Shown here one piece after another: positions 4,792-7,572 of a DNA stretch of 11,603 bases. Positions within the stretch are counted from its first letter, which is position 1, and every line of letters starts with the position of its first letter. Below the pieces are notes generated by a model that saw only the letters and a program-made list of their open reading frames with translations, did not search any database and had not been told where the DNA came from. Source of the DNA: Planctomycetota bacterium. GTDB taxonomy: Bacteria; Planctomycetota; Phycisphaerae; SM23-33. Position numbers and translations under genes: made by a program. The stretch lies in the NCBI GenBank assembly GCA_029553505.1, contig JAKPKY010000249.1, forward strand, positions 1-11,603. Reading direction: 5' to 3'.

Positions 4792-4805
4792 GAAACCTGC
4801 TGCAT

Positions 4806-4878
4806 GGGGCTGTGGCGCAGTTGGGAGCGCGTCTGCATGGCATGCAGAAGGTCGAGGGTTCAAATCCCTCCAGCTCCA
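4806..4878 (+). tRNA. tRNA-Ala (anticodon GGC), 73 nt, CCA not encoded
   Basis: Cloverleaf folded by hand: acceptor GGGGCTG/CAGCTCC with the G3:U70 wobble pair that defines Ala identity; D-stem GCGC/GCGC; anticodon stem TCTGC/GCAGA with loop ATGGCAT (GGC at 34-36), identical in stem-loop architecture to E. coli tRNA-Ala(GGC); T-stem GAGGG/CCCTC with loop TTCAAAT; discriminator A. Confidence 0.92.
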
Positions 4879-4882
4879 TTGA

Positions 4883-4911
4883 GGCGGACCTTTTCGGGTT
4901 CGCCTTTTTTA
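4883..4911 (+). terminator. Rho-independent terminator for tRNA-Ala: GGCGGACC-ttttcg-GGTTCGCC then TTTTTTATTT
   Basis: 8-bp GC-rich stem (one G:T wobble) followed by a T-run; the T-run overlaps the TAA stop (4911-4909) of the convergent minus-strand gene. Confidence 0.7.
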
Positions 4912-6192
4912 TTTCCCCGCCTTGGTTTCCGGAGGGGCTTCGCTCGCAACCATTGATTCCCTAAGGCATTGGAACGCCTCGCTCATCCGGACGGCGTCCG
5001 GCTCGCCCGAAGCGTCGAAGACCATCGCCATGGGCGCGGCGTTGAGGCCGGGACGGACTTTCGCCCCCGCGACGACCAGCCAGCGGTGCCACTTGCCGGC
5101 CGAGGGCGTCAGCACGCTGAAAATTTCCGTCGCCGTCTCGCCCGCCTGCCAGGACTTGTGGACCAGGACGAGGTATCCCTTGTCGCGGAAGTGTTGCAGG
5201 TAGGTGTCCAGGACGGCCTGCGGCGTCTTGGCCGACCGCCCCGCCAGCGCGCGGGCGAACAGCAGCCCGCCCGGCGCGGGCGTGAGGTACAACTGGGCGT
5301 AGGGTTCGATCTCGGCAACATACTTTCGTTCGCCGCGTTCGAAGCGGACCCAGCCCGTCGGGGGCCTGACCTCGATTCGCAAAGGCCCGTCGCGTTTGGA
5401 GACGGCCTGTCCGGGCGCGGCGGCGGGCGTCTCGGCCAGCGCCTTGACCAGCGCTGCCGCGAAGGGCTCGTAGAGCTTCCGCTCTCCCTCGGCCTGGTGG
5501 TCGGGCCCGCGCGGCGGGGCCTTGCCTGCCGCGACGGCCTCCAGCCAGGCGTCCAGCGCGTCGTCGGGCTCGACAAACTCCAGGCCCTCGCCCAGGCGCG
5601 TGTCGAGGGTGAAATTCGCGTCAGCGCCGTCCGCCGTCTGTCGCCACATCGTCAGCGTGCCGGCCGCGTCTTGCGGGCGCGTGCCCACGCTCACCCAGAC
5701 GGGCACGGACGCGGGCGGCTTCCACAGGCCGATCGACTCGCCGGATTTTTCCACCGGCGTCACGGAGTTCAGCACGATCCCCGACAGGCGTTGCGGGTTC
5801 AGAGAGGCCAGCGCCAGCGCCGTCGGACCGTTGGCGGCGTCGGCGACGAGCAGGAACTTCCGCGCGTCGAGGGGCTTTCCCTCGGCTGCCCGGTCCACGG
5901 CCGCCAGCAACGCCCCGACGCGCGAGGCGTCGAGTTTTTCCCCGGCCGCCGGGCGAAACACGAAGAAGCCCTTGGCGAGCAGCCGCGGAGTGAAGTGCTC
6001 CGCCGCGCCGCGCGGCCCCTCGGCCGCCAGCAGCAGCGCGGCAGGACGCTTGCCTTCGGCCGCCTTGGGAGTCAGGACCGCCAGGTTGACGGGCTCCGCC
6101 GACTGCGACGCCGGCTGCGACGCCGCATCGGCCCCCATGGCGACGGCCACCAAACCCGCCCACGCCACTGCCGCAACGATGTGCCTGTTCAT
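4909..6192 (-). CDS. Secreted hypothetical protein, 427 aa (signal peptide MNRHIVAAVAWAGLVAVAMGADA); ORF is open upstream to a TTG at 6270 but that extension overlaps the MITE-like repeat
   Basis: Long ORF with non-artefactual composition (many K/E/F/W/Y); N-terminal hydrophobic signal sequence from ATG 6192; no motifs I can assign to a family. Confidence 0.55.
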   Translation of the reverse strand: MNRHIVAAVAWAGLVAVAMGADAASQPASQSAEPVNLAVLTPKAAEGKRPAALLLAAEGPRGAAEHFTPRLLAKGFFVFRPAAGEKLDASRVGALLAAVDRAAEGKPLDARKFLLVADAANGPTALALASLNPQRLSGIVLNSVTPVEKSGESIGLWKPPASVPVWVSVGTRPQDAAGTLTMWRQTADGADANFTLDTRLGEGLEFVEPDDALDAWLEAVAAGKAPPRGPDHQAEGERKLYEPFAAALVKALAETPAAAPGQAVSKRDGPLRIEVRPPTGWVRFERGERKYVAEIEPYAQLYLTPAPGGLLFARALAGRSAKTPQAVLDTYLQHFRDKGYLVLVHKSWQAGETATEIFSVLTPSAGKWHRWLVVAGAKVRPGLNAAPMAMVFDASGEPDAVRMSEAFQCLRESMVASEAPPETKAGK

Positions 6193-6245
6193 GCCGTCAC
6201 TGAATACCCCAAATCCGCCCCGACGGCAAGAAGCGAAAATAGTAG

Positions 6246-6385
6246 CCAGGCTCTGTCTGAAAACTCGCAATCCGGGGGTGCCACGGCTTGCTTGTCAAGC
6301 CGTGTCGCCGCAAGAACACTGCTTGCAAGCAAGCAGTGCCACCCTTGTGGATACATCTGGCGAGGAGTTTTCAGACAGAGCCTGG
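6246..6385. mobile_element. MITE-like element, 140 bp: perfect 21-bp terminal inverted repeats (CCAGGCTCTGTCTGAAAACTC 6246-6266 / GAGTTTTCAGACAGAGCCTGG 6365-6385) flanked by TAG on both sides (6243-6245, 6386-6388); carries two GC-rich palindromic hairpin modules
   Basis: Inverted repeat and flanking TAG direct repeat read directly from sequence; no ORF inside; sits in the divergent promoter region between the 4909..6192 gene and mutY. Confidence 0.4.
6274..6344. repeat. Two adjacent palindromic hairpin modules (R1 family) inside the MITE-like element: GGGGGTGCCAC-GGCTTG-cttgt-CAAGCC-GTG (6274-6304) and, in opposite orientation, CACTGCTTGC-aa-GCAAGCAGTGCCACCC (6317-6344)
   Basis: The reverse complement of the second module (GGGTGGCACtGCTTGCTTGCAAGCaGTGTTC) is near-identical to 10304-10336 (GGGTGGCACgGCTTGCTTGCAAGCcGTGTTC). 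Confidence 0.6.
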
Positions 6386-6417
6386 TAGCCTGTGCATCGG
6401 TCGGAGCGCACGAACCG

Positions 6418-6446
6418 CTTGGCCGGGCGGTCGGCGGACCGTACAA
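6418..6446 (+). promoter_or_regulatory. Candidate mutY promoter: TTGGCC (6418-6423) - 17 nt - TACAAT (6441-6446), followed by a GC palindrome CCCCGCGCGGGG in the leader
   Basis: Canonical spacing; 40 nt upstream of the mutY GTG. Confidence 0.4.
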
Positions 6447-6486
6447 TGCCCCGGCCGCCCCGCGCGGGGCCGGCGGAATCCGTATC

Positions 6487-7572
6487 GTGAAGCTCTCCCC
6501 AAAGATCGTCGAAGACGTCCGGAAACGCCTGCTGGACTGGTATCGCCGCCACTGCCGCGAGATGCCCTGGCGGCAAATCCGCGACCCCTACGCCATCTGG
6601 ATTTCCGAGATCATGCTCCAGCAGACGCGGGTGACGGCCGTCGTGCCCTACTTCCGCCGATTCCTGGAGCGATTCCCCGACGCAGCGTCGCTGGCCCGGG
6701 CCCGCCTCGACGACGTGCTCAAGGCATGGGAAGGCCTGGGCTACTACAGCCGCGCGCGGAACCTCCACGCGGCCGCCAAGCGCGTCGTGGCCGACTTCGG
6801 CGGGGCACTGCCCCGCAGCGTCGAGCAACTCCGCTCGCTGCCGGGCGTGGGGCAATACACGGCCGGGGCCATCGCGAGCATCGCGTTCGGCCTGGACGAA
6901 CCCGTGCTGGACGGAAACGTGACGCGCGTGCTGTGCCGCCTGCTGCGCGTGGAATCCGACCCGCGCAGCGGCGCGACGGTGCGCGGGCTGTGGGCGGCGG
7001 CGCGGCGGCTCGTGCCGCGCGGAAAGGCCGGCCTGTTCAACCAGGCGATGATGGACCTTGGCGCGACCGTCTGCACGCCGCGCAACCCCCGCTGCGGCGC
7101 CTGCCCGCTGGCGACGCCCTGCCGCGCCCGCGCAGCCGGCGTGCAGGAGCAACTGCCGCGCAAGGCCTCCCGCAAGCCCCTGCCGCACCACACCGTCGTC
7201 TGCGCGATCGTCCGCCGGCGCGGGCGCATCCTCCTGGGCCGCCGCCGGGAAGAGGGACTGCTGGGCGGCCTGTGGGAATTCCCCGGCGGGAAGGTCGAGC
7301 CCGGCGAGTCGCTGCCGCAGGCCCTCGCGCGGGAAGTGCGAGAGGAAGTCGGCCTGGACATCCGCGTGGGCGAGCGGCTGGCCGTCGTCGAGCACGCCTA
7401 CACGCACTTCCGGATCACGCTGCACGCCTTCGACTGCCGGGCGGACAACGGGCGGGCGCGGGCGCTCGGCTGCCAGCGCGTCCGATGGGTCCGCCCAAAC
7501 GAACTCGACCAGTACGCCTTCCCCCGCGCCAACCGCCGCATCCTCCAGGCCATCACGGAATTTTCGATTTGA
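6487..7572 (+). CDS. mutY: A/G-specific adenine DNA glycosylase MutY with C-terminal NUDIX/MutT-like domain, 361 aa
   Basis: LLDWYRRH..R.MPWR, EIMLQQTRV, helix-hairpin-helix LPGVGQYTAGAIASIAFG, catalytic D in VLDGNVTRV, 4Fe-4S Cys cluster CTPRNPRCGACPLATPC, C-terminal WEFPGGKVE NUDIX-like fold; GTG start at 6487 is the first in-frame start after the promoter; the long upstream extension of the ORF (from 4969) is antisense to the previous gene. Confidence 0.9.
   Translation: MKLSPKIVEDVRKRLLDWYRRHCREMPWRQIRDPYAIWISEIMLQQTRVTAVVPYFRRFLERFPDAASLARARLDDVLKAWEGLGYYSRARNLHAAAKRVVADFGGALPRSVEQLRSLPGVGQYTAGAIASIAFGLDEPVLDGNVTRVLCRLLRVESDPRSGATVRGLWAAARRLVPRGKAGLFNQAMMDLGATVCTPRNPRCGACPLATPCRARAAGVQEQLPRKASRKPLPHHTVVCAIVRRRGRILLGRRREEGLLGGLWEFPGGKVEPGESLPQALAREVREEVGLDIRVGERLAVVEHAYTHFRITLHAFDCRADNGRARALGCQRVRWVRPNELDQYAFPRANRRILQAITEFSI

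Follow-up and report, generated by a model that had tools for sequence, protein, structure and literature searches.

A Probable IS427-Group MITE Upstream of mutY in a Planctomycetota Bacterium, Its Sibling Copies and Its Parent Insertion Sequences

A short fold-back element located in the divergent intergenic region upstream of mutY in a Planctomycetota bacterium (assembly GCA_029553505.1, contig JAKPKY010000249.1; the window is the whole analyzed stretch of 11,603 nt) is most probably, at roughly 85%, a MITE, i.e., a non-autonomous derivative or hitch-hiker of an IS5-family insertion sequence (IS) of the IS427 group. The assignment is made because its 18-bp ends are common to transposase-carrying ISs and because sibling copies are dispersed. 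The ends are identical to those of such ISs, the family of short elements is large and multi-copy, and the element has no coding capacity; we infer, in addition, mobilization in trans and a TA duplication at the window site. The element carries IS427-group ends but is not itself an IS. The initial annotation had already read it as a MITE, and a search with its terminal inverted repeat (TIR) recovered both siblings of the element and parent ISs that have these ends and encode a transposase.

The present element is an ordinary kind of bacterial repeat and changes no concept, IS5-family elements being well known to give rise to MITEs. For the Planctomycetota, a phylum poorly covered by catalogues of mobile elements, the gain is a MITE family that is defined and whose parent IS group has been identified. 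The TIR string returned no match in PMC or bioRxiv, and a published description of the TIR family was not found in the literature search. For annotation, it is useful to know that assemblies break at such repeats and that ORFs are spuriously extended into them, as at the mutY locus; the copy there may also be a source of expression variation beside this DNA-repair gene.

Structure of the Element and Its Locus

The element is delimited by two 21-nt arms, 6246–6266 (CCAGGCTCTGTCTGAAAACTC) and 6365–6385, which are 100% complementary and 98 nt apart, as had been described. With up to three mismatches allowed, the 21-mer occurs at two sites in the whole window, and matches were obtained in 0 of 200 dinucleotide shuffles. 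The core of the left TIR (GGCTCTGTCTGAAAACTC, 6249–6266, plus strand) is identical in all 18 nt to the left end of a full-length IS (L131) and corresponds to the first 15–16 nt of the ISs at L103, L108, L109, L110, L112, L118, and L122; the right core (6365–6382, minus strand) is its exact reverse complement. Outside these cores, CCA (6246–6248), formerly included in the TIR, occupies the C-TA slot of the family (target base and TA duplication), and TGG (6383–6385) occupies the TA-G/A slot (TA duplication and target base, which in the parent ISs form the transposase stop codon).

The interior (6267–6364) is a non-coding fold-back sequence with an inner palindrome at 6276–6344, as indicated by nested inverted repeats and folding. 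A 152-nt stretch forms a single hairpin on each strand (−89.3 and −87.3 kcal/mol; z = −9.5 and −8.6), while the interior folded alone reaches −47 kcal/mol (z = −5); the nested palindromes and the single long hairpin bear out the earlier description of a hairpin-rich, non-coding interior. The GC content is 0.56–0.57 at the element versus 0.70–0.75 in the surroundings. Over its 134–140 bp, the sole ORF is an upstream extension of the neighboring gene's frame. The proposed overlap of the left arm with the upstream reading frame holds for the mechanically called ORF (4909–6270, minus strand) and fails for the annotated gene, which starts at 6192. Coding sequence for an IS5-type transposase is absent from the window, as judged by C-terminal tblastn probes and by domain scans of the nine large ORFs, in agreement with the initial annotation.

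TAG occurs just outside both arms (6243–6245 and 6386–6388). It is part of a longer 6-bp direct repeat, GTAGCC, on the plus strand at 6242–6247, where its last two bases are also the first two of the 21-nt arm, and at 6385–6390.

The window was also scanned with Rfam at gathering thresholds, with no match at the element. In a 371-nt region searched at E values up to 10, the best match reached 23 bits against a gathering score of 48, and nothing scored among 17 sibling loci. Two independent public assemblies of the same strain (L094 and L096) start exactly at 6295, which is the center of the inner palindrome GGCTTG-cttgt-CAAGCC; these contig starts fit an assembly break caused by either the repeat or the palindrome.

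The element is flanked by two divergent genes separated by 294 bp. On the minus strand, 54 nt from the element, lies the ATG (6192) of a gene (4909–6192) for a 427-aa protein of no known family, whose exact product is present in public records; its N-terminus resembles a signal peptide (MNRHIVAAVAWAGLVAVAMGADA), and neither Pfam nor NCBIfam gave a match. A tRNA-Ala(GGC) gene is located at 4805–4879, just past the 3′ end of this gene and on the opposite strand. On the plus strand, the GTG start of mutY (6487–7572), encoding the A/G-specific adenine glycosylase, lies 101 nt beyond the end of the element. The earlier identification of mutY is upheld by TIGR01084 (325 bits; cut-off 286) and by the HhH-GPD and NUDIX_4 domains.

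The sole consensus match to a sigma-70-like promoter in the intergenic region (TTGGCC-17-TACAAT, 6419–6447, plus strand) is situated between the element and mutY, outside the element, and no terminator-like T-run is present. The suggestion that the element could alter the expression of either gene finds no support in this arrangement, and a regulatory effect on either divergent gene is speculative. The likeliest effect, if any, would be that of a stable hairpin in a 5′ leader or of a spacer separating the divergent promoters.

An empty site was not found, the four public contigs with the locus being identical across the region. The exact MutY and the exact 427-aa protein occur on identical contigs only. 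MutY homologues reach 68% identity at most, too low for nucleotide comparison at the locus, and the 427-aa protein has a single homologue (36% identity), which is not beside mutY.

Sibling Copies in Other Genomes

The terminal 18-mer CCAGGCTCTGTCTGAAAA was scanned on both strands in contigs from one genome per species (596 Gb) and was found in 93 stretches, compared with ~17 expected by chance (an estimate based on 4^18), mostly in Planctomycetota and partly in Gammaproteobacteria. In 48 cases, an inverted partner was present 45–350 bp away (up to three mismatches in a 15-nt core), these sibling counts covering only the minority CCAGG end variant that was fixed by the search pattern. A pattern covering the YYA end variants is [CT][CT]AGGCTCTGTCTGAAAA. 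Approximately 37 of the 48 paired copies belong to contigs labelled Planctomycetota, Phycisphaerae, Pirellulales, Planctomycetales, Tepidisphaerales, or Brocadiia, nine to Pseudomonas, Halomonas, Vreelandella, Salinicola, or Billgrantia, and a few to bins of other phyla. Several copies may occur in one metagenome-assembled genome (MAG), such as B58T3L14 (five loci), B36T1B5 (three), and CSMAG_1105 (three). In viral contigs, which served as a negative control, the 16-mer occurred 45 times, apparently inside coding sequence, and was never paired, showing that the pairing is specific.

Some loci differ in arrangement. In the cultured Pirellulales species Roseiconus nitratireducens, four loci (L007, L028, L037, and L060) carry the exact 18-mer with no recognizable partner within 400 bp, and at least two of them have the left flank CGCTGTCCAG in common; these loci may represent a one-ended or more diverged repeat type. 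At L049 (2281–2300), a second TIR ends right next to the element (...TCAGACAGAACC-CA-GGCTCTG...), a sign of insertions that are adjacent or nested.

Interiors and Fold-Back Across the Family

Several unrelated interior subfamilies were observed under one TIR. The interior of the window element recurs in a Planctomycetaceae MAG (L069; 87% identity over 70 nt), there as part of a full element, and in the Phycisphaerales genome UBA12270 (L059; 94% over 62 nt), and comparison of the window with L069 revealed compensated changes in the inner hairpin. The L059 copy (2590–2856) is without a left TIR and is interrupted by ~155 N, flanked by duplicated ACAAGCAAGCCGT; either the copy has been truncated or rearranged, or the assembly has a gap at the palindrome.

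A second subfamily of 150–165 nt, with the same ends, is conserved in MAGs of several Planctomycetota classes and keeps a full-length fold-back (L003, L005, L010, L012, L027, L049, L054, L062, L065, L067, L074, L079, and L093). In this 160-nt sister subfamily, 14 copies from different classes display double compensatory changes at 22 of 48 consensus pairs. Such changes fit either selection on the hairpin or homogenization of the palindrome arms. Across the family, the interior z-scores of members range from 0 to −12, i.e., fold-back is common and not universal.

Parent Insertion Sequences and Transposase

Among the 93 genome loci, there was no complete parent IS, only a decayed remnant in Pseudomonas duriflava (L075), whose transposase frame (...RFDKLAISFKALV...FQTEP) ends in the TIR and which gave no plasmid match at the DNA level. 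The R[YF]DK motif is typical of the C-termini of IS5-family transposases. Metagenome contigs were scanned for the TIR followed, after 36–66 nt, by R[YF]DK, which yielded 31 loci; the TIR + RYDK pattern gave zero matches in viral contigs. Twelve of the 31 proved to be complete ISs of 911–947 bp with the same core (GGCTCTGTCTGAAAAC) at both ends (L103, L108–L112, L115, L118, L122, L127, L129, and L131), and one IS of 919/920 bp is present at four different sites (L103, L109, L118, and L122).

Each parent IS contains two overlapping ORFs, apparently encoding a frameshifted transposase. When the two ORFs were joined by hand at the overlap, the product matched NF033580 (transpos_IS5_3) with 286 bits (cut-off 110), as well as PF13340 (DUF4096) and PF01609 (DDE_Tnp_1). 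The right TIR of the parent ISs encodes the transposase C-terminus ...F-S-D-R-A (TTT TCA GAC AGA GCC), while the transposases of the relatives have other C-termini. In both the parent ISs and the relatives (L132–L135, L181, and L182), the transposase ORF stops at the flanking TAG or TAA. The stop codon is thus composed of the flanking TA (the presumed target duplication) and the next target base, so that termination depends on a YTAR target.

Beyond the 16–18-nt ends, the window interior has nothing in common with the parent ISs, and an origin by internal deletion is thus not supported.

Element Boundary and Target Site

Wherever the left end of a full-length IS is intact, the junctions read yTA/GGCTC...GAGCC/TAr (the slash marks the boundary), with right flanks of TAG or TAA. 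The same TA flanks were seen in ISPst8, the ISPs1 family, L181/L182, and the ISs on the SH-PL62 and Isosphaeraceae EP7 plasmids, relatives whose variant ends begin with GG(C/T)T or GCCTC (the latter in Isosphaeraceae EP7). In the short copies, for which the search fixed one end as CCA, the non-fixed end reads CTA in ~19, TTA in ~9, CCA in ~5, and others in a few. TA is present at one end in 26 of the 48 and is the commonest dinucleotide at the non-fixed end.

A pair of plasmids provides a comparison of a MITE with its target. The 146-bp copy on a Pseudomonas amygdali plasmid (L183) reads ...GCTCC-CTA/GGCTCTGTACG...CAGACCC/TAG-TGTGG, and the left flank of a P. syringae plasmid (L184), 98.5% identical, reads ...GCTCC-CTAG/ and then continues into a different IS. 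Only the left junction is informative here, related plasmids carrying another IS at the same CTAG. It indicates that the CTA to the left of the MITE is backbone, as a TA duplication within CTAG predicts. The same CTAG site therefore holds either the 146-bp MITE, beside an IS630 element (L183, 700–848), or a different IS5-group IS (L184, 1700–2930), and looks like an insertion hot spot on P. syringae-group plasmids.

From these sequence comparisons, the element-specific inverted repeat is read as 18 nt (6249–6266/6365–6382), with CCA/TGG as flank positions. Because CTAG is palindromic, flanks of C-TA...TA-G lengthen the apparent TIR by 3 bp. The window copy has CA/TG at the TA/TA position and all 36 core bases intact, and our reading is that CA/TG arose from TA/TA by one symmetric T:A to C:G change. 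The palindromic flank together with this change would account for the perfect 21-bp TIR of the initial annotation, of which the match itself stands and the extent as the TIR of the element does not.

A similar revision applies to the TAG flanks, which are indeed present at both ends and had been taken as a 3-bp target-site duplication. A 3-bp direct repeat outside the 21-nt boundary was detected in 4 of the 48 short copies versus 1.1 expected by permutation; of these four, L073 and L078 are paralogues of each other, and L049 directly adjoins a further TIR. Since the IS427 group makes 2-bp duplications (PMC3281130) and the repeat is confined to these four copies, a TAG duplication is not a signature of the family. 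A general 3-bp duplication outside CCAGG was rejected on the same count.

The 6-bp GTAGCC repeat is not predicted by a 2-bp-duplicating enzyme of the IS427 type. Pure chance is unlikely (a post-hoc estimate of ~1/4096 per offset), and no comparable repeat occurs in the other short copies examined. The TA model would imply insertion into a tandem TAGTAGC-TAGTAGC having CTAG at its center and predicts GAAAATAGTAGCTAGTAGCCTGTGC as the empty site; collapse of the TAG/GTAGCC repeat would instead give the pre-insertion site GAAAATAGTAGCCTGTGC and the predicted empty site GAAAATAGTAGCCTGTGCATC.

Proposed Mechanism and Alternative Explanations

In the proposed mechanism, the 18-bp ends would be the binding and cleavage sites of a DDE transposase of ~280 aa encoded elsewhere, whose DUF4096 and DDE_Tnp_1 parts would be read from two overlapping ORFs, apparently via a frameshift. 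Acting in trans, this enzyme would cleave the element at its GGCTC ends, and insertion would take place at the TA inside a YTAR target (typically CTAG), with duplication of the TA.

Two modifications of the MITE reading concern what became of the element, or how it arrived. It is unlikely that the fold-back of IS427-type MITEs is under selection, making them exapted structured elements across the phylum, or that GTAGCC marks an insertion route by microhomology or template switching. If selection on the fold-back were true, the hairpin situated between the secreted-protein gene and mutY would have a regulatory role. Exaptation at the locus itself, in which an element of MITE origin, its fold-back retained by selection, now influences the expression of mutY or of the secreted-protein gene as a structured RNA or DNA element (a hairpin in the 5′ leader, a barrier to transcription, or a target of RNase III, for example), is a distinctly unlikely explanation. 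The retention of fold-back across diverged copies, the 22 of 48 doubly compensated pairs in the 160-nt subfamily, the compensated inner-hairpin changes between the window and L069, and the symmetric flank change would all fit such a role, as would the reported effect of published MITEs on mRNA stability (PMC3733652). However, gene conversion or symmetric master copies can homogenize palindrome arms without selection, there is no Rfam match, and the interior z-scores vary from 0 to −12 within the family.

That the sequence is a locus-specific regulatory palindrome evolved in place, such as an operator or a bidirectional terminator/insulator, is very improbable. Its position in a divergent intergenic region of 294 bp and its very stable hairpin would be expected of such a site, but its ends are shared by ISs that encode a transposase and by dozens of genomes and loci that are unrelated, its interior turns up at different loci elsewhere, in other genomes, and a terminator-like T-run is lacking. 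The different flanks of the other copies exclude orthologous regulatory sites.

It has been reported that REP sequences are GTAG-tagged stem-loops of 20–40 bp that form inverted pairs and are associated with RAYT, and that GTAG-tagged repeats occur in PVC bacteria (PMC3733652). A REP/REPIN mobilized by RAYT (an IS200/IS605-like tyrosine transposase), suggested by GTAG before the left arm (6242–6245) and after the right arm (6385–6388), was rejected as virtually untenable: the two GTAGs are direct rather than inverted and hence lie outside the palindrome, the arms are 98 nt apart in contrast to 20–40-bp stem-loops, other family copies are without GTAG flanks, and the ends belong to a DDE IS of the IS5 family.

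Comparison with Known Systems

Among named ISs, a tblastn search of plasmids places ISPst8 and the ISPs1 family (~49% identity) closest to the parent transposases; IS5-family elements without a name, carried by Isosphaeraceae and Planctomyces plasmids, reach 52–55%. Transposases from Phycisphaerae and Planctomycetota MAGs (P0150 and P0146; L181 and L182) belong to ISs of the same architecture with variant ends. ISPst8 and ISPs1 have been classed as IS5/IS427 (PMC5658596, Table 1; PMC3056050). The family studied here resembles IS5/IS427 elements (ISPst8, ISPs1, and IS1248) in a TIR of the GG(C/T)TCTGT..GAAAA type and in C-TA...TA-G/A flanks, and its parent ISs are likewise ~0.9 kb long, with two overlapping ORFs (DUF4096 and DDE_Tnp_1) and an IS5_3 match. 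By contrast, the window element is without a transposase and has only 98 nt between its ends, and its exact TIR variant GGCTCTGTCTGAAAAC was found on unnamed metagenomic ISs only. IS427-group ISs of Paracoccus, captured with trap plasmids, are 832–865 bp long and contain two overlapping ORFs with a frameshift motif (PMC3281130), and nearly all of them have 2-bp direct repeats (PMC3281130, Table 2); the parent ISs described here, at 911–947 bp, are slightly longer.

The 146-bp MITE on Pseudomonas syringae-group plasmids (L183, pCOR2250) is likewise flanked by CTA/.../TAG. Its ends (GGCTCTGTACGTAAAGT) are of the same type as those of the window element and resemble the ends of the resident ISPs1/ISPst8, and its interior is ~75% identical to that of L008, a Pseudomonas chromosomal copy of the window element's family. 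However, the interior is unrelated to that of the window, and the TIR variant is ...GTACG.AAAG instead of ...GTCTGAAAAC.

Bacterial MITEs such as Correia/NEMIS, RUP, ERIC, and Nezha (PMC3733652) resemble the present family in being non-coding elements of 70–300 bp, with TIRs of 15–30 bp common to an IS, and in being multi-copy, intergenic, and able to form a robust hairpin. The present family differs from them in its IS lineage, in its distribution over many Planctomycetota classes and some Gammaproteobacteria, and in combining several unrelated interiors with one TIR.
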